From Thermodesulfobacteriota bacterium (GTDB lineage Bacteria > Desulfobacterota_D > UBA1144 > Nemesobacterales > Mycalebacteriaceae): a stretch of 64,000 bases of DNA. The stretch lies in NCBI GenBank assembly GCA_965205855.1, contig OZ242184.1, forward strand, positions 448,001 through 512,000, written 5' to 3'. How positions within the stretch are numbered: position 1 is the stretch's first letter; every line of letters starts with the position of its first letter. A program made the translations under genes and the position numbers. Below are positions 2,615-40,619 of the stretch, piece by piece. Below the pieces are notes generated by a model, which saw only the letters and a list, made by a program, of their open reading frames with translations, was not told where the DNA came from and searched no databases.

Positions 2615-2624
2615 CTTTCATACC

Positions 2625-3515: not shown

Positions 3516-3521
3516 TATGAG

Positions 3522-6500: not shown

Positions 6501-6678
6501 GGCGTTTCTGATTTTTAGGAGTAGGAGTTTTGTCTTCAACGGAGCGAATGAATATACGGCTTCCACAGTCAATAATATCTTTTGGAACTCCCTTGTGCTC
6601 TTCAACAACACTCCATCCGATGGAGTTTGTTCCCATATCGAGCCCAATACAGTATTCAAGTGTTTGTTTTGTTTTCAA
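3522..6678 (-). pseudogene. cas9: Type II-C Cas9 (about 1051 aa if repaired), split into two ORFs by one extra base in the A5G3 tract at 5296-5303
   Basis: ORF 5272-6678 carries RuvC-I (IGLDMGTNSIGW), the Arg-rich bridge helix and REC (HLGTRRGFLSNRK, IFFQRP). ORF 3522-5189 carries RuvC-II (IRIEMARD), HNH (IEIDHIFPHS...ENQEKGNKTP) and RuvC-III (HHAVDA). The second frame extends upstream as GAVQLAGYE...IPNPIVQKALHEVRR and joins the first frame after ...SDEEK if one base is removed. No csn2 or cas4 is present. Confidence 0.93.
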
Positions 6679-26800: not shown

Positions 26801-29800
26801 CAACGCCGATGTCGGCGACTACGAGGGCATCGTGATCAGCGTCACCGATGGCATCATCACCACACCGGTCGCGCTCGCCGCCTTTGCTATCGCCGTCACC
26901 AACACCAATGACGCGCCCACCCTCAGCGGCACGCCCGCCACCAGCGTGGCCGAAGACAGCGCCTATAGTTTCACGCCAACCGGCGCCGACGATGATGGCG
27001 ACACGCTGGTATATGCGATCACAAACATGCCGTCATGGGCCAGTTTCAGCACCACGACCGGGGCCTTGACCGGCACCCCCGCCAACGCCGATGTCGGCAC
27101 CACCACGGACATTGTGATCACCGTCAGGGACAGAGACACCGGCGGTCTGAGCGCCTCGCTACCCGCCTTTAGTATCGAAGTCACCAACACCAATGACGCG
27201 CCCACCCTCAGCGGCACGCCCGCCACCAGCGTGGCCGAAGACAGCGCCTATAGCTTCACGCCAAGCGGCGAAGATGTGGATGTTGGCAACACGCTGACCT
27301 TTGCCATCACAAACCTGCCGTCATGGGCCAGTTTCGACACCGCAACCGGGGCCTTGACCGGCACGCCCGTCAACGCCGATGTCGGCGACTACGAGGACAT
27401 CGTGATCAGCGTCACCGATGGCATCATCGCCACGCCGGTCGCGCTCCCCGCCTTCGATATCGCCGTCACCAACACCAATGACGCGCCCACCCTCAGCGGC
27501 ACGCCCGCCACCAGCGTGGCCGAAGACAGCGCCTATAGTTTCACGCCAAGCGGCGAAGACGATGATGGCGACAGGCTGACCTTTGCCATCACAAACCTGC
27601 CGTCATGGGCCAGTTTCAGCACCACAACCGGGGCCTTGACCGGCACGCCCGCCAACGAGCATGTCGGCGACTACGAGGACATCGTGATCAGCGTCACCGA
27701 TGGCATCATCGCCACGCCGGTCGCGCTCCCCGCCTTCGATATCGCCGTCACCAACACCAATGACGCGCCGACCCTCAGCGGCACGCCCGCCACCAGCGTG
27801 GCCGAAGACAGTGCCTATAGCTTCACGCCAAGCGGCGCCGACGACGATGACGACACGCTGGAATATGCCATCACAAACATGCCGTCATGGGCCAGTTTCA
27901 GCACCACAACCGGGGCCTTGACCGGCACGCCCGTCAACGCCGATGTCGGCGACTACGCGGACATCGTGATCAGCGTCACCGATGGCATCATCGCCACACC
28001 GGTCGCGTTGCCTGCCTTTGCTATCGAGGTCACCAACACCAATGACGCGCCGACCCTCAGCGGCACGCCCGCCACAACCGTGGCCGAAGACAGCGCCTAT
28101 AGCTTCACGCCAAGCGGCGAAGACGATGATGGCGACCCGCTGACCTGGGCGATCACAAACATACCTTCATGGGCCACTTTCGACGAAACCAGCGGAGTCT
28201 TGACCGGCACCCCCGCCAACGCCGATGTCGGCAACCACGAGGACATCGTGATCAGCGTCACCGATGGCATCATCGCCACACCGGTCGCGTTGCCTGCCTT
28301 TGCTATCGAGGTCACCAACACCAATGACGCGCCGACCCTCAGCGGCACGCCCGCCACAACCGTGGCCGAAGACAGCGCCTATAGCTTCACGCCAAGCGGC
28401 GAAGACGCAGATGGCGACCCGCTGACCTTTGCCATCACAAACATGCCTTCATGGGCCAGTTTCAGCACCACAACCGGGGCCTTGACCGGCACCCCCGCCA
28501 ACGCCGATGTCGGCAACCACGAGGACATCGTGATCAGCGTCACCGATGGCATCATCGCCACACCAGTTGAGCTGCCGGCCTTTGCTATCGCCGTCACCAA
28601 CACCAATGACGCGCCCACCCTCAGCGGCACGCCCGCCACAACCGTGGCCGAAGACAGCGCCTATAGCTTCACGCCAAGCGGCGAAGACGCAGATGGCGAC
28701 CCGCTGACCTTTGCGATCACAAACATGCCTTCATGGGCCAGTTTCAGCACCACAACCGGGGCCTTGACCGGCACGCCCGTCAACGCCGATGTCGGTGACT
28801 ACGAGGACATCGTGATCAGCGTCACCGATGGCATCATCGCCACACCGGTCGCCCTCCCGGCCTTCGATATCGCCGTCACCAACACCAATGACGCGCCCAC
28901 CCTCAGCGGCACGCCCGCCACAAGCGTGGCCGAAGACAGCGCCTATAGCTTCACGCCAAGCGGTGCCGACGATGATGGCGACACGCTGACCTTTGCCATC
29001 ACAAACATGCCACCATGGGCCAGTTTCGACACCACGACCGGCGCCTTGACCGGCACGCCTGCCAACGAGCATGTCGGTGACTACGAGGGCATCGTGATCA
29101 GCGTCACCGATGGCATCATCGCCACACCGGTCGCCCTCGCATCCTTCGATATCGCCGTCACCAACACCAATGACGCGCCCACCATCAGCGGCACGCCTGC
29201 CACAACCGTGGCCGAAGACAGCGCCTATAGCTTCACGCCAAGCGGTGCCGACGATGATGGCGACACGCTGACCTTTGCCATCACAAACATGCCACCATGG
29301 GCCAGTTTCGACACCACGACCGGCGCCTTGACCGGCACGCCTGCCAACGAGCATGTCGGTGACTACGAGGGCATCGTGATCAGCGTCACCGATGGCATCA
29401 TCGCCACACCGGTCGCCCTCGCATCCTTCGATATCGCCGTCACCAACACCAATGACGCGCCCACCCTCAGCGGCACGCCCGCCACCAGCGTGGCCGAAGA
29501 CAGTGCCTATAGCTTCACGCCAAGCGCTGAAGATGCAGATGGCGACCCGCTGACCTTTGCCATCACAAACATGCCACCATGGGCCAGTTTCGACACCACA
29601 ACCGGGGCCTTGACCGGCACTCCCGCCAACGAGCATGTCGGCGACTACGAGAACATCGTGATCAACGTCACCGATGGCATCATCGCCACACCGGTCGCGC
29701 TGCCCGCCTTCGATATCGCCGTCACCAACACCAATGACGCGCCCACCATCAGCGGCACGCCCGCCACCAGCGTGGCCGAAGACAGCGCCTATAGCTTCAC

Positions 29801-32800
29801 GCCAAGCGGCGAAGACGCAGATGGCGACCCGCTGACCTTTGCCATCACAAACATGCCTTCATGGGCCAGTTTCAGCACCACAACCGGGGCCTTGACCGGC
29901 ACGCCCGTCAACGATGATGTCGGCGAGTACGCGGGCATCGTGATCAGCGTGAGCGATGGCATCATCACCACACCAGTTGAGCTGCCCGCCTTTGCTATCG
30001 CCGTCACCAACACCAATGACCCGCCGACCCTCAGCGGCACGCCCGCCACCAGCGTGGCCGAAGACAGCGCCTATAGCTTCACGCCAACCGGCGCCGACGA
30101 TGATGGCGACACGCTGACATATACGATCACAAACCTGCCGGCATGGGCCGCCTTCAGCACCACGACCGGCGCCTTGACCGGCACGCCCGCCAACGCCGAT
30201 GTCGGCGACTACGAGGGCATCGTGATCAGCGTCACCGATGGCATCATCGCCACACCGGTCGGCCTCGCAGCCTTCGATATCGCCGTCACCAACACCAATG
30301 ACGCGCCCACCCTCAGCGGCACGCCCGCCACCAGCGTGGCCGAAGACAGCGCCTACAGTTTCACGCCAAGCGGCGAAGACGCTGATGGCGACCCGCTGAC
30401 CTTTGCGATCACAAACATGCCTTCATGGGCCAGTTTCAGCACCACAACCGGGGCCTTGACCGGCACGCCAGACAACGAGCATGTCGGCGACTACGATGGC
30501 ATCGTGATCAGCGTCACCGATGGCATCATCGCCACACCGGTCGCCCTCCCGGCCTTCGATATCGCCGTCACCAACACCAATGACGCGCCCACCCTCAGCG
30601 GCACGCCCGCCACAAGCGTGGCCGAAGACAGCGCCTATAGCTTCACGCCAAGCGGTGCCGACGATGATGGCGACACGCTGACCTTTGCGATCACAAACCT
30701 GCCGTCATGGGCCAGTTTCAGCACCGCAACCGGGGCCTTGACCGGCACGCCCGTCAACGAGCATGTCGGCGACTACGCGGACATCGTGATCAGCGTCACC
30801 GATGGCATCATCGCCACACCGGTCGCGCTGCCGGCCTTTGACATCGCCGTCACCAACACCAATGACGCGCCCACCCTCAGCGGCACGCCTGCCACCAGCG
30901 TGGCCGAAGACAGTGCCTATAGCTTCACGCCAAGCGGTGCCGACGATGATGGCGACACGCTGACCTGGGCGATCACAAACATGCCACCATGGGCCAGTTT
31001 CGACACCACGACCGGCGCCTTGACCGGCACGCCTGCCAACGAGCATGTCGGCGACTACGAGGGCATCGTGATCAGCGTCACCGATGGCATCATCGCCACA
31101 CCGGTCGCGCTGCCCGCCTTCGATATCGCCGTCACCAACACCAATGACGCGCCCACCATCAGCGGCACGCCCGCCACCAGCGTGGCCGAAGACAGCGCCT
31201 ATAGCTTCACGCCAAGCGGCGAAGATGCAGATGGCGACCCGCTGGAATATGCCATCACAAACATGCCACCATGGGCCAGCTTCGACACCACCACCGGGGC
31301 CTTGACCGGCACGCCCGTCAACGCCGATGTCGGCGACTACGAGAACATCGTGATCAGCGTCACCGATGGCATCATCGCCACACCGGTCGCCCTCGCATCC
31401 TTCGATATCGCCGTCACCAACACCAATGACGCGCCCACCATCAGCGGCACGCCCGCCACAACCGTGGCCGAAGACAGCGCCTATAGCTTTACGCCAACCG
31501 GGGCCGACGATGATGGCGACAAGCTGACCTATGCCATCACAAACATGCCGTCATGGGCCAGTTTCAGCACCACAACCGGGGCCTTGACCGGCACGCCAGT
31601 CAACGCCGATGTCGGCGACCACGAGAACATCGTGATCAGCGTCACCGATGGCATCATCGCCACACCGGTCGCCCTCGCATCCTTCGATATCGCCGTCACC
31701 AACACCAATGACGCGCCCACCATCAGCGGCACGCCCGCCACCAGCGTGGCCGAAGACAGCGCCTATAGCTTTACGCCAACCGGGGCCGACGATGATGGCG
31801 ACAAGCTGACCTATGCCATCACAAACATGCCGTCATGGGCCAGTTTCAGCACCACAACCGGGGCCTTGACCGGCACGCCAGTCAACGCCGATGTCGGCGA
31901 CCACGAGAACATCGTGATCAGCGTCACCGATGGCATCATCGCCACACCGGTCGCCCTCGCATCCTTCGATATCGCCGTCACCAACACCAATGACGCGCCC
32001 ACCATCAGCGGCACGCCCGCCACCAGCGTGGCCGAAGACAGCGCCTATAGCTTTACGCCAACCGGGGCCGACGATGATGGCGACAAGCTGACCTATGCCA
32101 TCACAAACATGCCTTCATGGGCCAGTTTCAGCACCACAACCGGGGCCTTGACCGGCACGCCAGTCAACGCCGATGTCGGCGACCACGAGAACATCGTGAT
32201 CAGCGTCACCGATGGCATCATCGCCACACCGGTCGCCCTCGCATCCTTCGATATCGCCGTCACCAACACCAATGACGCGCCCACCATCAGCGGCACGCCC
32301 GCCACAACCGTGGCCGAAGACAGCGCCTATAGCTTTACGCCAACCGGGGCCGACGATGATGGCGACAAGCTGACCTATGCCATCACAAACATGCCTTCAT
32401 GGGCCAGTTTCAGCACCACAACCGGGGCCTTGACCGGCACGCCAGTCAACGCCGATGTCGGCGACTACGAGGACATCGTGATCAGCGTCACCGATGGCAT
32501 CATCGCCACGCCAGTAGCGCTGCCGGCCTTTGCTATCGAAGTCACCAACACCAATGACGCGCCGACGATCAGCGGCACGCCCGCCACAACCGTGGCCGAA
32601 GACAGCGCCTATAACTTCACGCCAACCGGCGAAGACGCTGATGGCGACACGCTGACCTGGGCGATCAGCAACAAGCCAGACTGGGCGAATTTCAGCACCA
32701 CGACCGGGGCATTGACCGGCACGCCAGACAACGATGATGTCGGCGACTACGCGGGCATCGTGATCAGCGTCACCGATGGCATCATCACCACGCCAGTAGC

Positions 32801-35800
32801 GCTGCCGGCCTTCGATATCGCGGTCACCAACACCAATGACCCGCCCACCCTCAGCGGCACACCCGCCACCAGCGTGGCCGAAGACAGCGCCTATAGCTTC
32901 ACGCCAACCGGCGAAGATGCAGATGGCGACAGGCTGACCTTTGCGATCACAAACATGCCTTCATGGGCCAGCTTCGACACCACAACCGGGGCCTTGACCG
33001 GCACGCCCGTCAACGCCGATGTCGGCGACTACGAGGACATCGTGATCAGCGTCACCGATGGCAGCATCGCCACGCCGGTAGCGCTACCGGCCTTTGCTAT
33101 CGCCGTCACCAACACCAATGACGCGCCCACCCTCAGCGGCACGCCCGCCACCACCGTGGCCGAAGACAGCGCCTATAGTTTCACGCCAACCGGCGAGGAT
33201 GTGGATGTTGGCGATACGCTGGTATATGCGATCACAAACCTGCCGTCATGGGCCAGTTTCAGCACCACAACCGGGGCCTTGACCGGCACGCCCGTCAACG
33301 CCGATGTCGGCGACCACGAGAACATCGTGATCAGCGTCACCGATGGCATCATCGCCACACCGGTCGCCCTCGCATCCTTCGATATCGCCGTCACCAACAC
33401 CAATGACGCGCCCACCATCAGCGGCCCGCCCGCCATCAGCGTGGCCGAAGACAGCGCCTACAGCTTCACGCCAAGCGCTGAAGATGCAGATGGCGACAGG
33501 CTGACCTTTGCCATCACAAACATGCCGCCATGGGCCGCCTTCAGCACCACGACCGGCGCCCTGACCGGCACGCCCGCCAACGAGCATGTCGGCGACCACG
33601 AGGACATCGTGATCAGCGTCACCGATGGCATCATCGCCACGCCGGTCGCGCTGCCGGCCTTTGCTATCGAGGTCACCAACACCAATGACGCGCCCACCTC
33701 GATCGGGCTGACGGTCTCGACAGAAGAGGATACCGCCCACAGCTTTGCGGCAGGCGAGTTCAACTTTGCCGATGTGGACGGCGATGCCCTGCACAGCCTG
33801 CGCATCGACACGCTGCCCGGTAGCGGCAGCCTGACCCTTGACGGCGCTGCGGTGACCGCCGGGGATGTGATCCCCGCCGCCGGGGTCGCGAACCTTGTCT
33901 ATACCCCGGCTGCGAATGCCACCGGCGATGTCAGTTTCACCTTCAGCCTTTCCGACGGCACCGCCTTTGGCGCGACCGCCACGGCAACCGTCACCATCGG
34001 CGCCGTCAATGACCCGCCGACCTCGATCGGGCTGACGGTCTCGACAGAAGAGGATACCGCCCACAGCTTTGCGGCAGGCGAGTTCAACTTTGCCGATGTG
34101 GACGGCGATGCCCTGCACAGCCTGCGCATCGACACGCTGCCCGCAACCGGCAGCCTGACCCTCGACGGCACTGCGGTGACCGCGGGAGATGTGATCGTTG
34201 CCGCTGGTATCGCGAACCTTGTCTATACCCCGGCCACCAATGCCACCGGCGATGTCACCTTCACCTTCAGCCTCAACGACGGCACCGCCTTTGGTGCAAC
34301 CGCCACGGCGACCGTCAGCATCGGCGCGGTCAATGACGCGCCCACCCTCAGCGGCACGCCCGCCACCAGCGTGGCCGAAGACAGCGCCTACAGCTTCACG
34401 CCAAGCGGCGAAGACGCGGATGGCGACAGGCTGACCTGGGCGATCAGCAACAAGCCAGACTGGGCGAATTTCAGCACCGCAACCGGCGCCTTGACCGGCA
34501 CGCCCACCAACGAGCATGTCGGCGCCCACGAGGACATCGTGATCAGCGTCACCGATGGCATCATCGCCACACCGGTCGCGCTGCCCGACTTCGATATCGC
34601 CGTCACCAACACCAATGACGCGCCCACCCTCAGCGGTACGCCCGCCACAAGCGTGGCCGAAGACAGCGCCTATAGCTTCACGCCAACCGCTGAAGATGCA
34701 GATGGCGACACGCTGACTTGGGCGATCAGCAACCAGCCAGACTGGGCGAATTTCAGCACCACAACCGGGGCCTTGACCGGCACGCCCGCCAACGCCGATG
34801 TCGGCGACTACGCGGACATCGTGATCAGCGTCACCGATGGCATCATCGCCACACCGGTAGCGCTGCCCGCCTTCGATATCGCCGTCACCAACACCAATGA
34901 CGCGCCCACCCTCAGCGGCACGCCTGCCACCAGCGTGGCCGAAGACAGCGCCTATAGCTTCACGCCAAGCGGCGAAGACGCGGATGGCGACAGGCTGACC
35001 TGGGCGATCAGCAACAAGCCAGACTGGGCGAATTTCAGCACCACAACCGGGGCCTTGACCGGCACGCCCGTCAACGCCGATGTCGGCGACCACGAGGGCA
35101 TCGTGATCAGCGTCACCGATGGCATCATCGCCACACCGGTCGCGCTGGCGGCCTTTGCTATCGCCGTCACCAACACCAATGACGCGCCCACCCTCAGCGG
35201 CACGCCCGCCACCAGCGTGGCCGAAGACAGCGCCTATAGTTTCACGCCAACCGGCGCCGACGATGATGGCGACACGCTGACCTTTGCGATCACAAACATG
35301 CCGTCATGGGCCAGTTTCAGCACCACAACCGGGGCCTTGACCGGCACCCCCGCCAACGCCGATGTCGGCGACTACGAGGGCATCGTGATCAGCGTCACCG
35401 ATGGCATCATTGCCACACCGGTCGCGCTGCCCGCCTTCGCTATCGCCGTCACCAACACCAATGATGCGCCGACGATCAGCGGCACACCCGCCACAAGCGT
35501 GGCCGAAGACAGCGCCTATAGTTTCACGCCAAGCGGCGAAGACGCGGATGGCGACAGGCTGACCTGGGCGATCAGCAATAAGCCAGACTGGGCGAATTTC
35601 AGCACCACAACCGGGGCCCTGACCGGCACGCCCGCCAACGCCGATGTCGGCAACCACGAGGGCATCGTGATCAGCGTCACCGATGGCATCATCACCACAC
35701 CGGTCGCGCTGCCCGCCTTCGATATCGCCGTCACCAACACCAATGACGCGCCGACGATCAGCGGCACGCCCGCCACAAGCGTGGCCGAAGACAGCGCCTA

Positions 35801-38800
35801 TAGCTTCACGCCAACCGCTGAAGATGCGGATGGCGACAGGCTGACCTGGGCGATCACAAACATGCCTTTATGGGCCAGTTTCGACACCACAACCGGGGCC
35901 TTGACCGGCACGCCCGTCAACGCCGATGTCGGCGACTACGAGGACATCGTGATCAGTGTCACCGATGGCATCATCGCCACGCCGGTCGCCCTCGCAGCCT
36001 TCGACATCGCCGTCACCAACACCAATGACCCGCCCACCCTCAGCGGCACGCCTGCCACCAGCGTGGCCGAAGACAGCGCCTACAGCTTCACGCCAACCGG
36101 CGAAGACGATGATGGCGACACGCTGGTATATGCCATCACAAACATGCCTTTATGGGCCAGTTTCGACACCACAACCGGGGCCTTGACCGGCACCCCCGCC
36201 AACGAGCATGTCGGCAACCACGAGAACATCGTGATCAGCGTCACCGATGGCATCATCGCCACACCAGTAGCGCTGCCGGCCTTTGCTATCGCCGTCACCA
36301 ACACCAATGACGCGCCGACTTCGAGCGGGCTGACGGTCTCGACCCAAGAGGATACCGCCCACAGCTTTAGGTTGGGCGAGTTCACCTTTGCCGATGCCGA
36401 CGGCGATGACCTGGACAGCCTGCGCATCGACACGCTGCCCGCAACCGGCAGCCTGACCCTCAACGGCACTGCGGTGACCGCCGGGCAGCTCATCCCCGCC
36501 GCCGGTATCTCGAACCTTGTCTATACCCCGGCCGCCGATGCCACCGGTGATGTCACCTTCACCTTCAGCCTCTCCGACGGCACCGCCTTCAGCGCAACCG
36601 CCACGGCAACCGTCACTATCGGCGCCGTCAATGACGCGCCGACTTCGAGCGGGCTGGCGGTCTCGACCCAAGAGGATACCGCCCACAGCTTTGCGGCAGG
36701 CGAGTTCAACTTTGCCGATGTGGACGGCGATGACCTTGACAGCCTGCGCATCGACACGCTGCCCGGTAGCGGCAACCTGACCCTCGACGGTAATGTCGTG
36801 ACCGCAGGGGATGTGATCCCCGCCGCCGGGATCGGGACCCTCGTCTATACCCCGCCCGCCGATACCACCGGCGAGGTCAGTTTCACCTTCAGCCTCTCCG
36901 ACGGCACCGCCTTCAGTGAACCCCCAGCCACGGCAACCGTCACCATCACCAGCAGGGCGACCGCTGGTGACAACAATGCACCTATCGCAATAGCGATTGC
37001 GATACCCAATCCAGCTTCTGAGGGCGCCACCGTCACCCTGGACGGCAGCGGTAGCAGCGATCCCGAGGGCGATGATCTGACCTATATCTGGCGCCAGATC
37101 GACGGGCAGACTGTCGACCTGGACGACGATACTGCCGCCATAACCACCTTCATCGCTCCCAGCGAACTGGTGGAAAATGCCGAGCTGAAGTTTGATTTCA
37201 AGGTCAACGATGGTGTGAGCGACTCGGCAGGCAATGCCTTGGTCGTCACGGTAATCGCTGGTGACAATGACCCGCCGACCGCCGATGCCGGTGATGATCA
37301 GATTGTGGAAAAAGGAGCAACCGTCACCCTTGACGGCAGTGGCAGTAGCGATCCCGAGGGCGCGACCCTGAGCTACGTCTGGTCCCAGACCCAGGGCGCG
37401 GATGTCACCCTGAATGATGCCAGCGCACAAAGCCCGACCTTCACCGTTCCAGACACAATAGCAACGGGTGACGGCATACTTGTGTTCAGCCTGACCGTCA
37501 CCGAAGCCGGCGCGGGCGGGCTCTCCTCTACAGCCGACAGCGTCGAAATACACATTCGACCGCTATTCCGAGACACAGTGAGCAACCAGACCTATATCCG
37601 GGGTGTGGCCATAGCCGCTCTGGAATTGCCTACTGCTCTGGGCCGGAATAAAACCTACGCCCTGGTCAGGACGGGGTCGGTTCCAGCCCTGCCGACCGGG
37701 CTGACATTTGATGCGGGGACACGCACACTGTCCGGCACCCCGACAATATCCGGCACCTTTGACCTGATCTACACTGTAACGGATGGGGAGGGTAGAACGG
37801 ATACACTGGAATTCGCCATCAGCATCGCTATCCCGGCGACGGTGTCGATCTCGGGGCCAGGCAGCAATGTAGCCGAAGGCGCGGATGCCACCTTCACCGT
37901 CACCCTGTCGGCTTCTCCCGGAGATGCTGTGGTGGTGGACTACGCCACCGTGGCGGGCACGGCAACAGCGAATGATGATTTCGAGGAGACGAGTGGCACG
38001 CTAACCTTCGCGGCAAACACAACCACCCTGACCCAGTCCTTCAACGTGAAGGTGCTCCCTGATGCTCAGGTGGAAGGCGACGAGAGTTTCACCGCAACCC
38101 TGAGCGCGAACACCAGCAGTCCGCTACCGGCAGGGTTCACCCTGGGCACGGCAACAGCAACGGCGACGATTGAGGCGGCGGGTTCGGCAACAGTGTCGAT
38201 CTCTGGCGGCGGCAATGTGGCCGAAGACGATGATGCCACCTTCACCGTCACCCTGTCAGCCTCACCCGGCGCGGAAGTGGTCGTGGACTACGCCACCGCA
38301 GCAGGCACGGCGACAGCGGATGATTTCACCGCGGCCAGCGGCACGCTGACCTTCGCCGCGGGCGCCACTGGCGATGACTTGACCCAGACCTTTGACGTGA
38401 AGGTGCTCCCCGATGAACAGGTGGAAGGCGACGAGAGTTTCACCGCGACTCTGAACACGAACACTCTACCGACCGGGTTCAGCCTGGGCACGCAAACGGC
38501 AACGGCGACGATTGCAGGAGCGGGTTCGGGAACGGTGTCTATCTCTGGCGGCGGCAATGTGTCCGAAGACGATAACGCCACTTTCACCGTGACCCTGTCG
38601 GCTTCTCCCGGAGGTGCTGTGGTGGTGGACTACGCCACCGTGGCGGGCACGGCAACAGCGAATGATGATTTCACCGCGGCCAACGGCACGTTGACCTTCG
38701 CCGCGGGCGCCACTGGCGATGACTTGACCCAGTCCTTCGACGTGAAGGTGCTCCCCGATGGTCTGGTGGAAGGCGACGAGTCCTTCACCGTAAGATTGAG

Positions 38801-40619
38801 CTCAAACTCCGACAACCCGCTGCCGACAGGGATCACCCTCGGCACCACCAGCGCCCAGGCAACCATCCAGGCCAATGGCGTGGCGGTAGTGTCGATTGAA
38901 GGCCCTGAAAACCCGGTGTCCGAAGGCGAGACCGCCACCTTTACGGTGACGCTGTCGGACTTTCCCGTGACAAGGATGGTAATGGGCTACGCCACCTTGA
39001 TTGCGGCAGATGACACGGCGACAGCCGATGACTTCACGGCGACGGATGGCATGCTGGTCTTCGATGCCGGCACGACGACCCTGACGTTCACGGTCCTCGT
39101 GACGGAAGATGACCTGGCCGAGAGCACAGAAACCTTCACGGTGACCTTGAGTCCACCCAACACGGGTCTGCCGACGGGCTTCAGACTGGGCACGGCGAGC
39201 GCGCGGGCGACCATCGCGGCGAGCGGTACTGAAGACCTGGATCGTGATGGCAGGAAAACGTTGTTGACGCACCTCACGATTGTTCAGAGCGATCTGGTGA
39301 TAAGTACGGTACAGAACCACCTGAGGGCGCTGGACGGAGGCAACCGTGTGAGCGTTCCACGACATGCGGTTGTAGAGACAGAGGGAGAAGGCAAATACGT
39401 TGAATACGAGAACGTCCGTGAGATGCTGTCTCATCTGGAGTTTGATCTTTCCCTGAACAGTCTGATGGGGTCGAATGAGGAGTGGCGCAAGACCGGTATT
39501 TCGTCCGCCGGTTTAGAGGGTTCGACTGATTTGTCATCGCCGCGGACACTTACCCTGTGGGGAGGAGGAGGCGAGACGCGTCTGGACAACGATTACAATA
39601 CATCCGGTGACGACAATCGCTATGACGGTCGTGTGTGGTCTTACAACACAGGTTTGGATTACCGTCCCTCGGAGTCTTTGACCTTGGGTGCGGCAGTGGG
39701 TTATCTGGACAGTGAACTGACGACCACCTACAACGAAGGCACCTATGATGAGAAGATGGTATCGGTGTCACCGTACCTGCTGTATGAGAGTCCGTGGGGT
39801 CTGGATATATCCCTGTTTGGGGGCTACGGAATAGGAGATGTTGACCTGACGGGGACGTTTGGGCAGGCGAGCACGCCGTTCGCGGCCTCTGCCGACAGTA
39901 ATCTGTTATTTGGCGCGGTGCGTGTGTCGGGTGCGATGAAGTTTTTGGATAACAGTTTGGAAGTGGTACCGAATGTGAGTCTGCTCGGCAGTCGCAAGAG
40001 GCTGGAGGGATATACGGACAGCAGCAACCGTGAGATTGGTGAGACCACGGCGTCAGTGCTTCGCCTGACTCCGGGTTTTGAGGTGAGTTACCGTGTGAAG
40101 TTTTCAGGAGTAACGTTGAGGCCGTTTGCGAGCGGAGGTTTGATATTTGATTTATTAGATACGGTGAATGATGACGATATGACTTACAGTGTTGGCGGTG
40201 GAATGCGTTTTGAAACCGAGGTGGGTTTGAGCGGTTCTGTGGAGGGTCAGCGTGAGCTGGGTCGTGAAGCGGTAGAGCAACGGCGCTTTGTGGGCGCGTT
40301 GTCTTACGGTATTGCTGTGGGCAGGAATGGGAGAGCGGGGACTGTGACGCCGTCTGTAGGTATTAATCACGCATCCGGGGATGATGTGTCTGCAGAGGGA
40401 TTGTCACAGGCATACGTGCTGGAATACACCACGAGAGGTGGAGGCCACAGTATTAGTTTTGAGCATGACAGGTCGGAAGAGGAGGGAGCGCGTTCCGGTC
40501 TGGGTTATCGTTACGGAGCAGAGATTATGCCGGGATTGAACTTGGAGGCAACAGTGTCGTCCCCGAATGTTGAAAAACGTGAGGTTAAGGGATTTGTTGG
40601 CATGAAACTCCGGTTTTAA
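8877..40619 (+). CDS. Giant (10,580 aa) autotransporter-type surface adhesin
   Basis: GAGGAG RBS and a Sec signal peptide (MLKLLIFTLLGMVAAHAVGA). Domains in order: 10 divergent cadherin-like, several TYQW-type Ig, Calx-beta, about 70 putative-Ig (He_PIG/CADG-like), 9 cadherin-like 108-aa units, PKD-like, Calx-beta, a helical linker and an amphipathic beta-barrel ending in ...VGMKLRF. Confidence 0.93.
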   Translation: MLKLLIFTLLGMVAAHAVGAEEAAPPVVPQYEVPAARTAAAQSAGNPGAGLSTTGKFAALELRITDGPQSLPVSGMFNNPGGGSLIYTAVSSEATVATVSITASLLTITPLAAGTTDITITARDDAADLEVTQTFRVTAISLISPGASIPNQQLTSSGGPQTLDLSDYISDPQGNPLSFTASSNNLTAATVGVDGNILTITPLAPGTSTIAITVRNSPFDAGVTLDFQVQVINFSPTSSGIPDQQLVFAGPTKLLDLNDYFSDTEGDELRYSDAVSSNQAVATVFKGDPTNFLFIIPTPNGVLGTTDISVTANDRFGGTLTQVFQVETTNQAPISCCTFTTSAATVAGGPDTIDLDDFFSDPDASSIPDHALIYTAVSDNTAVATASINGNILTITPVKRGTASVTVTASDGFAEASLQILTIVNPSNPFSADGIPDQGLALSGDRSARTLNLNNYFSDPDGDNLEYTWILQPRGTQPVTNVSLSGSMLSISTRGAKRGSDAITITASKRAGSLTKTSLPSSFNVVVDPAEPRRTSPTIGGPSSRLSLHSPQTFNLDDYFESPSALSYTAASVDSGTVKVRIDGSMLTVTPVRPSTRDTRIIINATNQLGSLIVYVFDVRVPNMAPITRGGNLAFRFTDTDQISFSNHSLYFTDPDGDPLSYTTRSNGTNIVSVSISPTTGNTLLHAEGVGNATISVTASDPLGASVTRVFPASVSGTAPRVTAPILEGPNRRFLLQRSGTDPDNQVRLDLSDYFSDADGGQPIYTVAQNPSFFVNSSLSGNRFLTITPTDKTGITTITVTATDRIISNLKATQTFGVAVVNGNPVRNDTPFEPEVTLSLGPQTLNLDNYFSDPNDDSISYEMESIESDYATVRTDRIGRADNLIITPLKRGGPVRFTITARDPFGGTSTHELAFEVGNAAPVRMGGVPALVMNHGDGPQKLVNIDSKFFDHDGDDLTYTATPSGAGGNSVATVDVDGDILTITPLARGRVDFDIFASDGHRTSGGGLILSRPHTLSLNVKAAPTIAGTPALTVDEDSPYSFTPNGADADGDPLIYAIVNKPPWADFDIATGALTGTPLHEHVGTTTGIVISVSEPSGAEASLPAFDITVIDVNNAPEGRPVITGLLAPGQLLTATTDTIGDEDGLGAFSYQWNTNDGDTDTAISGADSNTYTPTGTDVGKSITVTVSYTDGEDTLERVTSEPVTIGGAIITGIAREDEPLTVDASSIDDENGLNRRRFLYVWLARGSSGLPTPIYTTEEEGNSYTLTQSEVGKHIYVVVNLLSDDSSLLQVFSNEIGPVENVNDAPTGKVIVSGVPMEDVRLTATVDAPRDEIGDEDGLGAFSYQWNTNDGDTDTAISGADSNTYTPTEADVGKLITVTVSYTDGQGTPENLTSETVGPIRPEVTVSLSGPENPVTEGDPATFTVTLSDSFEEGNEIGSVLALVVNYATSVAAGDTAAATDFTATSGMLTFAAGTTELSQTFDVPVATDNLVEGDETFTATLSANADPLPAGFSLGTTTAQATIAANAGTVSIAGPENPVNEGEDATFTVTLSGTPTADIVVVDYAIAAGTAFASDFGAPSGSGTLTFPAGVTGDDLSQTFSVPVTDDKLTEVAQTFTATLSANAASPLPTVFSLGTATATATIAASDAATVSISGGGSVNEGEDATFTVTLSNPRPSTAGRVSVEYFIVAGGTATEGTDFTVPGPFSRVLIFVVPVGEDDLTQTFTVPVADDGLVEGAETFIVGLRATPVDPLPANATVDTATATVTIQASDPATLSIADADPVAEGDPAIFTVTLSGGSPGSDVVVNYTASVAAGDTAEAADFTAPANDAALTFTAGVSGNDLTQDISVPTTDDNETEQVETFTVTLRAPNAGFPAGITLNSSATSAQATIKASDNDPPTISGTPATSVAEDSAYSFTPTGEDADGDTLTFAITNMPSWASFDIVTGALTGTPANADVGDYEDIVISVTDGIIVTPVALAAFDIEVTNTNDAPTISGTPATSVAEDSAYSFTPTSEDADGDPLTWAISNIPSWASFDIATGALTGTPVNADVGNHAGIVISVTDGIITTPVALPAFAIAVTNTNDAPTLSGTPATTVAEDSAYSFTPTGADDDGDTLTYAITNMPSWASFSTTTGALTGTPANADVGDYEGIVISVTDGIIATPVALPAFDIAVTNTNDAPTISGTPATSVAEDSAYNFTPSGEDADGDSLTFAITNMPSWASFDTATGALTGTPANEHVGDYEDIVISVTDGIIATPVELPAFAIEVTNTNDAPTLSGTPATSVAEDSAYSFTPTGEDADGDTLVYAITNMPSWASFSTTTGALTGTPANADVGNHEDIVISVTDGIIATPVALPAFDIAVTNTNDAPTISGTPATSVAEDSAYSFTPSGADDDGDRLTFAITNMPSWASFDTTTGALTGTPANEHVGDYEDIVISVTDGIIATPVELPAFAIEVTNTNDAPTLSGTPATSVAEDSAYSFTPTGADDDGDTLTYTITNLPAWAAFSTTTGALTGTPANADVGNHAGIVISVTDGIIATPVALPAFNIAVTNTNDAPTLSGTPATSVAEDSAYNFTPSGEDADGDSLTFAITNMPSWASFDTATGALTGTPANADVGNYEDIVISVTDGIIATPVALPAFDIAVTNTNDAPTLSGTPATSVAEDSAYSFTPSGEDADGDRLTFAITNIPSWASFDTTTGALTGTPANADVGTTTDIVISVTDGIIATPVALAAFDIAVTNTNDPPTLSGTPATSVAEDSAYSFMPSAEDDDGDTLTFAITNMPSWASFSTTTGALTGTPANADVGNYEDIVISVTDGIIATPVALPAFDIAVTNTNDAPTISGTPATSVAEDSAYSFTPSAEDADGDPLTWAITNQPPWASFSTTTGALTGTPANEHVGDYDGIVISVTDGIITTPVALPAFAIAVTNTNDAPTSSGLAVTTQEDTAHSFTAGEFTFADVDGDALHSLRIDTLPATGTLTLDGAAVIAGQVIPAAGIATLVYTPAANATGDVSFSFSLSDGTAFGATATATVSITAENDAPTSSGLTVTTKEDTAHSFTAGEFTFADADGDDLHSLRIDTLPATGSLTLDGAAVIAGQVIPAAGIGTLVYTPAANATGDVSFTFSLSDGTAFSATATATVSITAVNDAPTTSGLAVSTDEDTAHSFAAGEFNFADVDGDALDSLRIDTLPGSGSLTLDGTAVTAGDVIVAAGIANLVYTPAANATGDVSFTFSLNDGTAFGATATATVSIGAVNDAPTLSGTPATSVAEDSAYNFTPSGEDADGDPLTWAISNIPSWASFDIATGALTGTPTNEHVGDYEDIVISVTDGIIATPVALPAFDIAVTNTNDAPTLSGTPATSVAEDSAYSFTPTGADDDGDTLTWVITNMPSWATFSTTTGALTGTPSNEHVGDYANIVISVTDGIIATPVELPGFAIAVTNTNDVPTLSGTPDTSVAEDSAYSFTPTGADDDGDTLVYAITNMPAWASFSTTTGALTGTPANADVGAHEGIVISVTDGIIATPVALPAFAIAVTNTNDAPTLSGTPDTSVAEDSAYSFTPTGEDADGDPLEYTITNMPSWASFSTTTGALTGTPDNDDVGDYEDIVISVTDGIIATPVALPAFAIEVTNTNDAPTLSGTPATSVAEDSAYSFTPSGEDVDGDTLTYAITNLPSWASFSTTTGALTGTPVNADVGDYAGIVISVTDGIIATPVELAAFDIAVTNTNDAPTISGTPAISVAEDSAYSFTPTGADDDGDTLTFAITNMPSWASFSTTTGALTGTPVNADVGDYEDIVISVTDGIITTPVALPAFDIAVTNTNDAPTSIGLTVSTEEDTAHSFAAGEFNFADVDGDDLDSLRIDTLPATGTLTLDGTAVTAGDVIPAAGIANLVYTPATNATGDVTFTFSLNDGTAFGATATATVSIGAVNDPPTTSGLTVSTQEDTAHSFAAGEFNFADVDGDDLDSLRIDTLPATGTLTLDGTAVTAGDVIPAAGIANLVYTPATNATGDVTFTFSLSDGTAFGATATATVSIGAVNDAPTLSGTPATSVAEDSAYSFTPSGEDADGDTLEYAITNMPSWASFSTTTGALTGTPTNADVGDHADIVISVTDGIIATPVELAAFDIAVTNTNDAPTISGTPTTSVAEDSAYSFTPSGADDDGDTLTFAITNMPSWASFSTATGALTGTPVNADVGDYEDIVISVTDGIIATPVALPAFAIAVTNTNDAPTLSGTPATSVAEDSAYSFTPSGEDVDVGDRLTFAITNLPSWASFDTATGALTGTPVNADVGDYEDIVISVTDGIIATPVALPAFDIAVTNTNDAPTLSGTPATSVAEDSAYSFTPSGEDDDGDRLTFAITNLPSWASFSTTTGALTGTPVNADVGDYEDIVISVTDGIIATPVALPAFDIAVTNTNDAPTLSGTPATSVAEDSAYSFTPTGEDDDGDRLTFAITNLPSWASFSTTTGALTGTPANADVGDYADIVISVTDGIIATPVALPAFAIEVTNTNDAPTLSGTPATTVAEDSAYSFTPSGEDDDGDPLTWAITNIPSWATFDETSGVLTGTPANADVGNHEDIVISVTDGIIATPVALPAFAIEVTNTNDAPTLSGTPATTVAEDSAYSFTPSGEDADGDPLTFAITNMPSWASFSTTTGALTGTPVNDDVGEYAGIVISVSDGIITTPVELPAFAIAVTNTNDPPTLSGTPATSVAEDSAYSFTPTGADDDGDTLTYTITNLPAWAAFSTTTGALTGTPANADVGDYEGIVISVTDGIIATPVGLAAFDIAVTNTNDAPTISGTPATSVAEDSAYSFTPSGADADGDPLTFAITNIPSWASFDTTTGALTGTPANADVGDYEDIVISVTDGIIATPVALPAFAIAVTNTNDAPTLSGTPATSVAEDSAYSFTPTGEDDDGDTLTWAISNKPDWANFNTTTGALTGTPVNADVGTTTDIVISVTDGIITTPVALPAFDIAVTNTNDAPTISGTPATSVAEDSAYNFTPSGEDADGDPLTWAISNIPSWASFDIATGALTGTPTNEHVGDYEDIVISVTDGIIATPVELPVFAIEVTNTNDAPTLSGTPATSVAEDSAYSFTPSGEDADGDTLTWAISNKPDWANFNTTTGALTGTPVNADVGTTTDIVISVTDGIITTPVALPAFDIAVTNINDAPTLSGTPATSVAEDSAYSFTPTGADDDGDTLEYAITNMPSWATFSTTTGALTGTPANADVGDYAGIVISVTDGIIATPVELAAFDIAVTNTNDAPIISGTPATSVAEDSAYSFTPTGEDDDGDPLTWAISNQPPWAAFSITTGALTGTPDNDDVGDYEDIVISVTDGIATPVALPAFDIAVTNTNDAPTLSGTPATSVAEDSAYSFTPSGADDDDDTLEYAITNMPSWATFDTTTGALTGTPANADVGNHEDIVISVTDGIIATPVALPAFDIEVTNTNDAPTLSGTPATSVAEDSAYSFTPTGEDDDGDRLTFAITNLPSWASFSTTTGALTGTPANADVGNHEDIVISVTDGIIATPVALPAFDIEVTNTNDAPTLSGTPATSVAEDSAYSFTPTGEDDDGDRLTFAITNLPSWASFSTATGALTGTPANADVGNHEDIVISVTDGIIATPVALPAFDIAVTNTNDAPTISGTPDTSVAEDSAYSFTPTGADDDGDTLTFAITNLPSWASFSTTTGALTGTPANADVGNYEGIVISVTDGIITTPVALPAFDIAVTNTNDAPTISGTPATSVAEDSAYSFTPTGEDDDGDRLTFAITNLPSWASFSTTTGALTGTPVNADVGDYEDIVISVTDGIIATPVALAAFDIAVTNTNDAPTLSGTPATSVAEDSAYSFTPSGEDDDGDRLTFAITNLPSWANFSTTTGALTGTPANADVGDYEGIVISVTDGIITTPVALAAFAIAVTNTNDAPTLSGTPATSVAEDSAYSFTPSGEDDDGDRLTFAITNLPSWANFSTTTGALTGTPANADVGDYEGIVISVTDGIITTPVALAAFAIAVTNTNDAPTLSGTPATSVAEDSAYSFTPTGADDDGDTLVYAITNMPSWASFSTTTGALTGTPANADVGTTTDIVITVRDRDTGGLSASLPAFSIEVTNTNDAPTLSGTPATSVAEDSAYSFTPSGEDVDVGNTLTFAITNLPSWASFDTATGALTGTPVNADVGDYEDIVISVTDGIIATPVALPAFDIAVTNTNDAPTLSGTPATSVAEDSAYSFTPSGEDDDGDRLTFAITNLPSWASFSTTTGALTGTPANEHVGDYEDIVISVTDGIIATPVALPAFDIAVTNTNDAPTLSGTPATSVAEDSAYSFTPSGADDDDDTLEYAITNMPSWASFSTTTGALTGTPVNADVGDYADIVISVTDGIIATPVALPAFAIEVTNTNDAPTLSGTPATTVAEDSAYSFTPSGEDDDGDPLTWAITNIPSWATFDETSGVLTGTPANADVGNHEDIVISVTDGIIATPVALPAFAIEVTNTNDAPTLSGTPATTVAEDSAYSFTPSGEDADGDPLTFAITNMPSWASFSTTTGALTGTPANADVGNHEDIVISVTDGIIATPVELPAFAIAVTNTNDAPTLSGTPATTVAEDSAYSFTPSGEDADGDPLTFAITNMPSWASFSTTTGALTGTPVNADVGDYEDIVISVTDGIIATPVALPAFDIAVTNTNDAPTLSGTPATSVAEDSAYSFTPSGADDDGDTLTFAITNMPPWASFDTTTGALTGTPANEHVGDYEGIVISVTDGIIATPVALASFDIAVTNTNDAPTISGTPATTVAEDSAYSFTPSGADDDGDTLTFAITNMPPWASFDTTTGALTGTPANEHVGDYEGIVISVTDGIIATPVALASFDIAVTNTNDAPTLSGTPATSVAEDSAYSFTPSAEDADGDPLTFAITNMPPWASFDTTTGALTGTPANEHVGDYENIVINVTDGIIATPVALPAFDIAVTNTNDAPTISGTPATSVAEDSAYSFTPSGEDADGDPLTFAITNMPSWASFSTTTGALTGTPVNDDVGEYAGIVISVSDGIITTPVELPAFAIAVTNTNDPPTLSGTPATSVAEDSAYSFTPTGADDDGDTLTYTITNLPAWAAFSTTTGALTGTPANADVGDYEGIVISVTDGIIATPVGLAAFDIAVTNTNDAPTLSGTPATSVAEDSAYSFTPSGEDADGDPLTFAITNMPSWASFSTTTGALTGTPDNEHVGDYDGIVISVTDGIIATPVALPAFDIAVTNTNDAPTLSGTPATSVAEDSAYSFTPSGADDDGDTLTFAITNLPSWASFSTATGALTGTPVNEHVGDYADIVISVTDGIIATPVALPAFDIAVTNTNDAPTLSGTPATSVAEDSAYSFTPSGADDDGDTLTWAITNMPPWASFDTTTGALTGTPANEHVGDYEGIVISVTDGIIATPVALPAFDIAVTNTNDAPTISGTPATSVAEDSAYSFTPSGEDADGDPLEYAITNMPPWASFDTTTGALTGTPVNADVGDYENIVISVTDGIIATPVALASFDIAVTNTNDAPTISGTPATTVAEDSAYSFTPTGADDDGDKLTYAITNMPSWASFSTTTGALTGTPVNADVGDHENIVISVTDGIIATPVALASFDIAVTNTNDAPTISGTPATSVAEDSAYSFTPTGADDDGDKLTYAITNMPSWASFSTTTGALTGTPVNADVGDHENIVISVTDGIIATPVALASFDIAVTNTNDAPTISGTPATSVAEDSAYSFTPTGADDDGDKLTYAITNMPSWASFSTTTGALTGTPVNADVGDHENIVISVTDGIIATPVALASFDIAVTNTNDAPTISGTPATTVAEDSAYSFTPTGADDDGDKLTYAITNMPSWASFSTTTGALTGTPVNADVGDYEDIVISVTDGIIATPVALPAFAIEVTNTNDAPTISGTPATTVAEDSAYNFTPTGEDADGDTLTWAISNKPDWANFSTTTGALTGTPDNDDVGDYAGIVISVTDGIITTPVALPAFDIAVTNTNDPPTLSGTPATSVAEDSAYSFTPTGEDADGDRLTFAITNMPSWASFDTTTGALTGTPVNADVGDYEDIVISVTDGSIATPVALPAFAIAVTNTNDAPTLSGTPATTVAEDSAYSFTPTGEDVDVGDTLVYAITNLPSWASFSTTTGALTGTPVNADVGDHENIVISVTDGIIATPVALASFDIAVTNTNDAPTISGPPAISVAEDSAYSFTPSAEDADGDRLTFAITNMPPWAAFSTTTGALTGTPANEHVGDHEDIVISVTDGIIATPVALPAFAIEVTNTNDAPTSIGLTVSTEEDTAHSFAAGEFNFADVDGDALHSLRIDTLPGSGSLTLDGAAVTAGDVIPAAGVANLVYTPAANATGDVSFTFSLSDGTAFGATATATVTIGAVNDPPTSIGLTVSTEEDTAHSFAAGEFNFADVDGDALHSLRIDTLPATGSLTLDGTAVTAGDVIVAAGIANLVYTPATNATGDVTFTFSLNDGTAFGATATATVSIGAVNDAPTLSGTPATSVAEDSAYSFTPSGEDADGDRLTWAISNKPDWANFSTATGALTGTPTNEHVGAHEDIVISVTDGIIATPVALPDFDIAVTNTNDAPTLSGTPATSVAEDSAYSFTPTAEDADGDTLTWAISNQPDWANFSTTTGALTGTPANADVGDYADIVISVTDGIIATPVALPAFDIAVTNTNDAPTLSGTPATSVAEDSAYSFTPSGEDADGDRLTWAISNKPDWANFSTTTGALTGTPVNADVGDHEGIVISVTDGIIATPVALAAFAIAVTNTNDAPTLSGTPATSVAEDSAYSFTPTGADDDGDTLTFAITNMPSWASFSTTTGALTGTPANADVGDYEGIVISVTDGIIATPVALPAFAIAVTNTNDAPTISGTPATSVAEDSAYSFTPSGEDADGDRLTWAISNKPDWANFSTTTGALTGTPANADVGNHEGIVISVTDGIITTPVALPAFDIAVTNTNDAPTISGTPATSVAEDSAYSFTPTAEDADGDRLTWAITNMPLWASFDTTTGALTGTPVNADVGDYEDIVISVTDGIIATPVALAAFDIAVTNTNDPPTLSGTPATSVAEDSAYSFTPTGEDDDGDTLVYAITNMPLWASFDTTTGALTGTPANEHVGNHENIVISVTDGIIATPVALPAFAIAVTNTNDAPTSSGLTVSTQEDTAHSFRLGEFTFADADGDDLDSLRIDTLPATGSLTLNGTAVTAGQLIPAAGISNLVYTPAADATGDVTFTFSLSDGTAFSATATATVTIGAVNDAPTSSGLAVSTQEDTAHSFAAGEFNFADVDGDDLDSLRIDTLPGSGNLTLDGNVVTAGDVIPAAGIGTLVYTPPADTTGEVSFTFSLSDGTAFSEPPATATVTITSRATAGDNNAPIAIAIAIPNPASEGATVTLDGSGSSDPEGDDLTYIWRQIDGQTVDLDDDTAAITTFIAPSELVENAELKFDFKVNDGVSDSAGNALVVTVIAGDNDPPTADAGDDQIVEKGATVTLDGSGSSDPEGATLSYVWSQTQGADVTLNDASAQSPTFTVPDTIATGDGILVFSLTVTEAGAGGLSSTADSVEIHIRPLFRDTVSNQTYIRGVAIAALELPTALGRNKTYALVRTGSVPALPTGLTFDAGTRTLSGTPTISGTFDLIYTVTDGEGRTDTLEFAISIAIPATVSISGPGSNVAEGADATFTVTLSASPGDAVVVDYATVAGTATANDDFEETSGTLTFAANTTTLTQSFNVKVLPDAQVEGDESFTATLSANTSSPLPAGFTLGTATATATIEAAGSATVSISGGGNVAEDDDATFTVTLSASPGAEVVVDYATAAGTATADDFTAASGTLTFAAGATGDDLTQTFDVKVLPDEQVEGDESFTATLNTNTLPTGFSLGTQTATATIAGAGSGTVSISGGGNVSEDDNATFTVTLSASPGGAVVVDYATVAGTATANDDFTAANGTLTFAAGATGDDLTQSFDVKVLPDGLVEGDESFTVRLSSNSDNPLPTGITLGTTSAQATIQANGVAVVSIEGPENPVSEGETATFTVTLSDFPVTRMVMGYATLIAADDTATADDFTATDGMLVFDAGTTTLTFTVLVTEDDLAESTETFTVTLSPPNTGLPTGFRLGTASARATIAASGTEDLDRDGRKTLLTHLTIVQSDLVISTVQNHLRALDGGNRVSVPRHAVVETEGEGKYVEYENVREMLSHLEFDLSLNSLMGSNEEWRKTGISSAGLEGSTDLSSPRTLTLWGGGGETRLDNDYNTSGDDNRYDGRVWSYNTGLDYRPSESLTLGAAVGYLDSELTTTYNEGTYDEKMVSVSPYLLYESPWGLDISLFGGYGIGDVDLTGTFGQASTPFAASADSNLLFGAVRVSGAMKFLDNSLEVVPNVSLLGSRKRLEGYTDSSNREIGETTASVLRLTPGFEVSYRVKFSGVTLRPFASGGLIFDLLDTVNDDDMTYSVGGGMRFETEVGLSGSVEGQRELGREAVEQRRFVGALSYGIAVGRNGRAGTVTPSVGINHASGDDVSAEGLSQAYVLEYTTRGGGHSISFEHDRSEEEGARSGLGYRYGAEIMPGLNLEATVSSPNVEKREVKGFVGMKLRF
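9050..11940 (+). repeat. Ten highly diverged cadherin-like domains (N-terminal region of giant protein 1)
   Basis: The LDLxDYFSDPDGDxLxYT...VATVxxxGxxLTITP...GTxxITVTAxD pattern recurs at a ~95-aa period with low DNA identity between copies. Confidence 0.8.
13080..14570 (+). repeat. Four Calx-beta-like domains
   Basis: VxEGxxATFTVTLS...VxY...GTA...DF...GxLTF...DxxxExxETF pattern. A second set of four lies at about 37830-39230. Confidence 0.8.
14570..36955 (+). repeat. Tandem array of about 69 near-identical 282-bp (94 aa) Ig repeats in blocks of 11, 6, 45 and 7, punctuated by 324-bp (108 aa) cadherin-like units in blocks of 3, 2, 2 and 2
   Basis: Main unit NDAPT(L/I)SGTPATSVAEDSAYSFTP..DxDGDxL..I.NxPxWAxFxTxTGALTGTPxNxxVG....IVISVTDGIIxTPVxLxAFxIxVTNT. 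Second unit PTSSGLxVxTxEDTAHSF..GEF.FADVDGDxL.SLRIDTLP. Counts come from coordinate spacing. Confidence 0.93.
39540..40619 (+). other. Outer-membrane beta-barrel (autotransporter-like) translocator domain
   Basis: TLWGGGG, GLDYRPSESLTLGAAVGY, VSVSPY, LEVVP, LRPF strands with alternating hydrophobicity and a terminal Phe (BamA signal). Confidence 0.85.

Follow-up and report, generated by a model that had tools for sequence, protein, structure and literature searches.

A protein of 10580 amino acids (aa), with the layout of an autotransporter, is encoded in a stretch of 64,000 nucleotides (nt) from the genome of a Thermodesulfobacteriota bacterium (assembly GCA_965205855.1, contig OZ242184.1, positions 448,001 to 512,000). 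This stretch is referred to as the window, and coordinates are given in its numbering. The beta-barrel predicted at the C-terminus of this protein is very likely larger than the 12 strands of a type Va autotransporter, and the residues that enlarge it appear to be a tandem copy of the last four classical strands. A first-pass annotation, made from the sequence alone, had counted about 18 strands, and regarded the barrel as a possible new type V subclass suited to giant chains of immunoglobulin (Ig)-like domains.

The classical barrel end and the residues beyond it

The position at which a classical barrel would end was located by three independent routes, all of which place the twelfth strand at the motif ALSYGI. 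The first is the Pfam profile of the family. The last 599 residues of the 10580-aa open reading frame (ORF), designated P0001, match PF03797 (Autotransporter) at residues 247–462, covering profile positions 2–219 of 255 with 82.9 bits against a cut-off of 26. Counting the 36 unmatched profile positions onward from residue 462 leads to the final I of ALSYGI (...FVGALSYGI ends at P0001 residue 498, window position 40313). The second route is provided by short relatives. When 1.84 billion cluster representatives were searched exhaustively with phmmer, 327 matched at E ≤1e-3, and the best 150 of these 327 were classed by the number of residues carried past the position aligned to ALSYGI. A classical end (−5 to +22 residues) was found in 46 representatives, while 57 carry 60–76 residues more, eight carry 77–90, six carry 95–105 and five carry more than 105; the remaining 28 were unclassifiable, their matches ending before query residue 295. 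The five classical relatives whose alignments were inspected (P0060, P0078, P0146, P0123 and P0085) end 2–4 residues past query residues 314–316. The third route is structural: EspP residues 1002–1300, which include its C-terminus, align to residues 3–364 of the model described below, and EspP residue 1300 falls on model residue 364, the I of ALSYGI.

Approximately 101 residues follow ALSYGI (40314–40616). They are coding and conserved in relatives, and they end in ...KLRF. In the relative P0007, the Pfam match reaches profile position 242 of 255 and ends 88 residues before the C-terminus. The first-pass annotation had read twelve strands, a classical end near ALSYGI and then about 100 aa more, and had suggested checking whether the Autotransporter hidden Markov model (HMM) ends near this motif; the three routes bear out that description.

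To trace the origin of these additional residues, the family alignment was divided into column blocks, which were compared by hhalign. The tail (model residues 367–465) aligned end to end with strands 9–12 (296–366) over 60 columns, with a probability of 93.8% and a P-value of 1.8e-7; five other block pairs gave P-values from 7.5e-4 to 0.11 and probabilities of 0.5–25%, and it counts against the comparison that hhalign P-values are uncalibrated for short membrane strands, leaving these control pairs as the sole yardstick. Corresponding motifs are visible in strands 9–12 and in the tail, namely ..l.PF.. and ..l.P.., ..GGGlR.. and ..GtGl.y.., and the old terminal ..laYgF and the new terminal ..l.F. 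Among the best 150 of the 327 matches, a tail of at least 60 residues is present in 76 of the 122 classifiable representatives, and 69 of these 76 have F, Y or W as their last residue. We therefore read the extension, on this comparison of sequences, as a tandem copy of the last double hairpin, strands 9–12. Such a copy would account both for the internal YGF-like motif at strand 12 of the family consensus and for the fresh aromatic terminus. A membrane location of the tail is likewise best argued from its homology to membrane strands.

The "double hairpin shift" is one of the internal repeat types defined for outer-membrane barrels (Franklin et al. 2018, PMC6340704), and the tail shows this type of shift with strands 9–12. 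According to the same article, which cites Remmert et al. 2010, solved "prototypical" barrels are proposed to have grown by amplification of hairpins or double hairpins, mainly at the N-terminus. The copy described here, in contrast, would be a C-terminal addition to an autotransporter, one that moved the assembly signal away from the chain end. The article does not contain the word "autotransporter".

Predicted structure and strand number

The C-terminal domain was modelled with AlphaFold2 (AF2) without templates, using a 70-row MAFFT alignment (A2) that contains only relatives bearing the extension. Of its 70 members, 68 also match PF03797. The resulting model has 16 strands, a mean predicted local distance difference test score (pLDDT) of 80.3 (74.4–80.3 across five models) and a predicted template modelling score (pTM) of 0.79. 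Its strands cover all twelve initial segments of the first-pass annotation and four of the six additional ones (GTVTPSVGIN, SQAYVLEYT, HSISFEHD and EVKGFVGMKL), and a conserved alternation of hydropathy is seen in the family alignment along strands 13–15 and the last strand. The other two segments, SGLGYRYGAEI and LNLEATVS, lie in a stretch with pLDDT <50 and are not modelled as strands. The proposal of about 18 strands thus stands in part: structure prediction gave no closed 12-strand barrel and the candidate strands are amphipathic, but the model shows 16 strands and none of the models shows 18.

The first-pass annotation had suggested that a long two-helix linker could plug the wider pore. 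Of the two helical stretches in the linker, only the first is predicted confidently, with block means of pLDDT of 84, 96 and 91 for model residues 1–30 and 79 for residues 31–40. This helix is kept in the family consensus. Its counterparts in the structural alignments are the pore helices of EstA, NalP, AIDA-I, Hbp and EspP, together with helix H1 of CdiB; helix and barrel were superposed on the solved autotransporters in the same rigid alignment, placing the helix in the predicted lumen as in type Va proteins.

The AF2 model was compared with 48,161 chains by VIA-align. Autotransporters gave Z-scores of 19.0 (EstA), 17.8 (AaaA), 17.2 (NalP), 16.4 (AIDA-I), 16.3 (Hbp), 16.1 (EspP) and 14.7 (BrkA), and all seven align only to model residues 1 to 352–364, with a root-mean-square deviation (rmsd) of 4.7–5.4 Å. 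The 16-strand FhaC aligns to model residues 105 to 465 (Z 16.6, 272 residues), the likewise 16-stranded CdiB to residues 6 to 465 with its lumenal helix included (Z 15.3, 317 residues), and TamA to residues 108 to 461 (Z 13.6). Foldseek also ranked autotransporters first, yet the TM-score normalised to the model was only 0.33–0.39. The rmsd of 4.7–5.4 Å is worse than expected for a closed 12-strand core, indicating that the model is not closed at 12 strands; for a 12-strand model compared with EspP, one preprint gives Z 31.8 and an rmsd of 2.3 Å. Collectively, the model, the aligned ranges of the solved barrels and the homology of the tail to strands 9–12 support the enlarged translocator that the first-pass annotation had proposed.

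Several points weigh against this reading. The highest Z-score belongs to an autotransporter (19.0, compared with 16.6 for the best 16-strand barrel), and alignments reaching model residues 398–399 were also obtained with two 14-strand barrels, CymA (Z 15.6) and OmpG (Z 12.7). The alignment behind the model is shallow and contains extended-family members only, and pLDDT in the last strand is only 63–67. Closure of the barrel at 16 strands is deduced from DSSP strands, pTM and aligned ranges, all of which are prediction.

Whether the barrel would have 16 or 18 strands turns on a 30-residue insert between strand 15 and the last modelled strand. This insert is occupied in very few of the 70 rows of A2 (occupancy digit 0–2 on a 0–9 scale). 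It is shared by the closest relatives, P0002–P0005 and P0153 at 65–99% identity and P0006 and P0029 at 33–40% identity. Its two halves, SGLGYRYGAEI and LNLEATVS, have amphipathic contrasts of 4.82 and 4.69, the second and third highest of the 18 segments, and only 0.16–0.21% of 9-mers in the beta-rich passenger reach such values, although amphipathic strands occur in soluble sheets too and the contrast is no proof of membrane insertion. Each half has one fully non-polar and one polar face; a 3-residue MPG turn lies between them, charged residues flank them, and faces, turn and flanks are preserved in P0006 and P0029. Short periplasmic turns and longer outer loops are the usual pattern of outer-membrane barrels, with which the MPG turn and the charged flanks agree. 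From these features, we infer that the two halves lie in the membrane as strands 16 and 17. A barrel of 18 strands is close to an even call. Against it stand the model itself, with 16 strands and pLDDT <50 in the insert, and two comparisons that gave no significant support for a duplicated hairpin: a 27-position HMM of hairpin 14–15 scored 0–4 bits against the insert, and an alternative hhalign alignment in which the insert is a copy of this hairpin gave a P-value of 0.018, which is not significant.

Exactly 16 strands, with the insert forming an extracellular loop or a protruding hairpin between strands 15 and 16, perhaps over or into a wide lumen, is a tentative but tenable alternative. It corresponds to the AF2 model as it stands, in which residues 409–419 and 454–463 form strands and 421–450 are unstructured. 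By topology, the strand before the insert runs upward and the one after it downward, which would place the insert on the extracellular side, where long loops are usual. A variable loop occupies the same place in the 57 representatives whose tail has 60–76 residues. However, the low confidence in the insert may reflect only its scant alignment coverage, both halves resemble modelled membrane strands down to 33–40% identity, and some relatives show a second route to about 18 segments, an insertion after strand 12 (see below).

A classical closed 12-strand barrel, with the tail of about 100 residues as a separate small beta domain in the periplasm or as a plug, is improbable. Strand 12 ends on the periplasmic side, making a periplasmic appendage topologically possible, and the highest Z-scores (16–19) go to autotransporters. 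Their rmsd, however, is not the close fit expected of closed strands 1–12, such as that of the preprint, whereas 16-strand barrels align through to model residue 465. The homology of the tail to membrane strands 9–12 and its conserved aromatic end also argue against a separate domain, and the pTM of 0.79 favours one compact domain. That the additional strands lack a structural role, being either an artefact of prediction or a remnant in decay, is very hard to sustain: in its favour are the shallow alignment and a pLDDT of only 30.6 from single-sequence AF2 on the last 419 aa, but the tail length class and hydropathy pattern are kept across dozens of clusters at 50% identity, the last 159 residues are 98–99% identical among five paralogues of this genome, and the gene has no stops or frameshifts. 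A two-barrel protein was also considered and was rejected, since 4–6 strands are too few for a second barrel.

Distribution in relatives and genomic context

The 57 representatives with a 60–76-residue tail are proteins of 176–1017 aa, mostly 480–680 aa. Their N-terminal parts are variable and have almost no Pfam match. A search of 120 genomes of the same class with the family profile gave matches in 27 genomes at E ≤1e-10, 22 of them in one genus of 36. From 88 profile matches, 30 were taken, chosen not at random but to span open frames of 391–13462 aa. The autotransporter ends of 28 of these 30 relatives align through position 305 or beyond of the 328-position barrel-plus-tail profile. In the other two, L029 has 96 unaligned residues after profile position 266, and L044 extends past the fetched stretch. 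In related genomes, the long barrel is thus found on short frames as well as on giant ones (391–13462 aa). Two further autotransporters in the same genome have classical-length ends according to Pfam, one of them on a 2963-aa open frame; a phmmer search with the query found no match to either. The enlargement is a lineage trait shared with small passengers and no device special to giant ones. The suggestion that it is suited to giant Ig-like chains, for which the first-pass annotation had proposed relating the extension to passenger type and size in homologs, is not supported; against it stand the 176–1017-aa carriers, the spread of frame lengths in related genomes and the classical end on the 2963-aa frame.

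Four inspected alignments (L017, L019, L024 and L015) show 45–50 extra residues directly after strand 12. Of the two strand-like segments in this insertion, one has another YGF-like motif at its end. The distance from strand 1 to the stop is about 360–377 residues in these relatives, compared with 357 here. The insertion may be an independent gain of a hairpin, and so a second route to about 18 segments.

Same-order relatives (L015–L021, from genomes G030, G026 and G057) have autotransporter-ended frames of 13462, 12422, 10893, 9984, 8759, 7402 and 7145 aa. To our knowledge, no single-chain autotransporter candidates as large as these have been described. Two of the 70 members of A2 carry a passenger of the Ubiquitin-family/Rad60-SLD type (best E 3.2e-27), an odd cargo for a bacterial autotransporter.

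The 1.40-Mb genome encodes five paralogues with open frames of 10601, 12381, 4367, 4827 and 1719 aa. These frames span about 487–586 kb of the contig (window position 8877 onward and past the window edge) and comprise 33,895 codons, approximately 7.3% of the genome. Their 159-residue C-termini are 98–99% identical, which suggests recent duplication or gene conversion. The 159-residue C-terminal query had no match at E ≤1e-3 in 60 related genomes, five of them of the same genus. The family profile later found divergent extended barrels in related genomes, indicating that this blank reflects divergence and not absence. Barrels with 65–67% identity occur in two metagenome-assembled genomes titled "Alphaproteobacteria bacterium", and one relative is titled "Paracoccaceae bacterium". 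Word-indexed searches for homologues yielded 3 and 8 proteins, which added no depth to the alignment. Among sequences in the PDB, phmmer found no match at E ≤1, and a profile search found EstA as the sole solved relative (E 3.2e-8, strands 2–8). No autotransporter model of NCBIfam scored above noise, and the ESM Atlas holds PF03797 clusters by features only, with no model of the 10580-aa protein.

The barrel makes up the last approximately 357 residues of the protein, and the Ig-like repeats lie N-terminal to it (Table 1). No stops or frameshifts interrupt the gene. He_PIG was detected in 27+38 stretches of the passenger, which also contains Big_9, Cadherin_4/5, Calx-beta and PKD domains. EmrE, End_N_terminal, Yopt and RibLong have good whole-protein Pfam E-values in the passenger (8877–38870), with 0 stretches passing individually; they are probably summed weak repeat matches and not true domains. 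Inside the giant gene, the minus strand contains long antisense ORFs (up to 615 aa), for example at 33246–35093 and 36150–37553, which most likely result from the repetitive composition of the gene. A second giant ORF begins at 40715 and extends past the edge of the window.

A clustered regularly interspaced short palindromic repeats (CRISPR) array with 26 copies of a 36-nt repeat, spaced by about 66 nt, is located upstream at 551–2242. Two of its 69-nt spacer-plus-repeat units (1771–1839 and 1901–1969) are 94% identical, indicating two nearly identical spacers. The array adjoins a type II cas operon on the minus strand (2285–6678). In-frame stops lie between the two ORFs that carry parts of Cas9, and cas9 may be broken or frameshifted.

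Table 1. Positions in the window of the autotransporter gene, its parts and the neighbouring cas genes.
Feature	Positions	Strand	Basis or remark
Whole gene, autotransporter-type surface protein (signal peptide, Ig-like repeat passenger, linker, enlarged barrel)	8877..40619	+	ORF list, 10580 aa
Likely Sec signal peptide, hydrophobic core ending AHA	8877..8927	+	Translation read by eye
Last Calx-beta domain of the passenger	38880..39215	+	PF03160, P0001 residues 21-132, 46.1 bits
Linker helix 1, 36 residues, predicted in the barrel lumen	39225..39332	+	AF2 helix 2-37
Second, short helical and strand linker segment	39411..39467	+	AF2 H64-71, E74-77, H79-82, pLDDT 56-74, flanks <50
Strands 1-12, equivalent of the classical type Va barrel	39546..40319	+	AF2 strands at 109-366; PF03797; solved autotransporters align
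Strands 13-15 of the extension	40338..40478	+	AF2 strands 373-386, 393-404, 409-419, pLDDT 71-91; homologous to strands 9-11
30-residue subfamily insert, either membrane strands 16 and 17 or a loop at the surface	40482..40571	+	pLDDT <50 (model 421-450)
Last strand, terminal aromatic residue, beta-signal-like ...KLRF	40581..40616	+	AF2 strand 454-463, pLDDT 63-67
Possible cas2, 109-aa ORF	within 2285-6678	-	Candidate, cas operon
Cas1	2625-3515	-	cas operon
Cas9 part, HNH and RuvC_III	3522-5189	-	Separate ORF
Cas9 part, Cas9 alpha-helical lobe	5272-6678	-	Separate ORF

Place among type V secretion systems

Type Va proteins such as EstA (3KVN), AaaA (9OQA), NalP (1UYO), AIDA-I (4MEE), Hbp (3AEH), EspP and BrkA (3QQ2) belong to the same sequence family, PF03797, and likewise have an N-terminal passenger. 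In the protein described here, passenger and barrel are on the same polypeptide and are preceded by a putative signal peptide. The helix before strand 1 superposes on the pore helix, strands 1–12 align one to one, and the C-terminus ends in an aromatic, beta-signal-like strand (...KLRF). Unlike the solved type Va proteins, it has 4 to 6 further predicted strands past the point where those proteins end, its linker has about 108 residues, and its passenger consists of Ig-like repeats and not of a beta-helix. Classical type Va linkers have about 30–40 residues.

Type Va barrels are described as having 12 strands and type Vb barrels as having 16 in the 2022 classification review (PMC9289746). The barrel described here, predicted with 16 strands and a 30-residue insert, departs from the 12-strand monomeric form. 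Its predicted shape, which combines about 16 strands with an N-terminal helix inside the lumen, is similar to that of the TpsB proteins of type Vb (FhaC, 4QL0; CdiB, 6WIL and 6WIM). However, no sequence relationship to TpsB was found and the passenger here is on the same polypeptide, and the resemblance would be convergence in size and not membership. PlpD of type Vd combines an N-terminal passenger and a C-terminal 16-strand barrel in one chain (PMC9289746, PMC11116518). The PlpD barrel is of the Omp85 type with POTRA, while the barrel here is of the PF03797 type; no POTRA, Omp85 or ShlB, as expected of types Vb and Vd, was among the Pfam matches on the last 599 aa (maximum E 1) or the passenger (maximum E 1e-5). 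The last 599 aa gave no Pfam match to the YadA anchor, and one chain supplies at least 16 strands in the model, which sets it apart from type Vc. In type Ve the barrel is N-terminal and an Ig-like passenger C-terminal, whereas here the barrel is C-terminal and the Ig-like passenger N-terminal. Both its sequence and its layout support a type Va autotransporter, one that on the predicted structure would depart from the 12-strand rule.

Full-text literature searches, with most subscription journals and supplements outside their scope, found no description of a PF03797 barrel with more than 12 strands, and to this extent the novelty proposed in the first-pass annotation is upheld. Such proteins could already be among the entries of a strand-count database that belongs to a 2026 preprint, "Counting strands in outer membrane beta-barrels".

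We propose that the ancestral strands 9–12 were duplicated in tandem after the old C-terminus, which would have raised the strand number of the barrel to 16. The motif that had ended the protein (..YGF, here YGI) would have moved to an internal position, and its role as a signal to the barrel-assembly machinery would have passed to the new terminal aromatic strand (..LRF). This subfamily has another hairpin of 30 residues, located between strands 15 and 16, which would most likely have contributed two more membrane strands for a total of 18. The protein would cross the inner membrane in a Sec-dependent manner and its C-terminal domain would insert into the outer membrane. The chain of about 10,000 residues, composed of Ig-like, cadherin-like and Calx-beta domains, would then be threaded out, and the 36-residue linker helix would stay in the lumen, as in classical autotransporters.

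As an example of a barrel that grew through double-hairpin duplication, the extension would be unusually clear and recent. With the copy added at the C-terminus, the terminal assembly signal had to be re-created, and the old signal is still visible as the internal YGF/YGI. The extended barrels also anchor some of the largest single-chain autotransporter candidates considered here, with open frames of up to 12,381 aa in this genome and up to 13,462 aa in that of a relative.

Twelve strands have been treated as a hallmark of type Va, and the narrow pore, given as 10 x 12.5 Å for NalP in PMC9289746, underlies a long debate on how the passenger exits. That PF03797 barrels of 16–18 strands form a distinct, unrecognised type V subclass, with a pore about a third to half wider and a changed export mechanism, is an unlikely but consequential reading; the wider pore is a geometric estimate from a backbone radius of about 16–18 Å compared with about 12 Å. 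If it were true, partly folded Ig-like domains or a two-segment plug could pass through or sit in the lumen, and the single-chain autotransport of passengers of 10,000–13,000 residues would be explained. A natural family of 16–18 strands derived from type Va would give a direct comparison set for the debate on passenger exit, with the same sequence family, the same linker helix and a wider pore.

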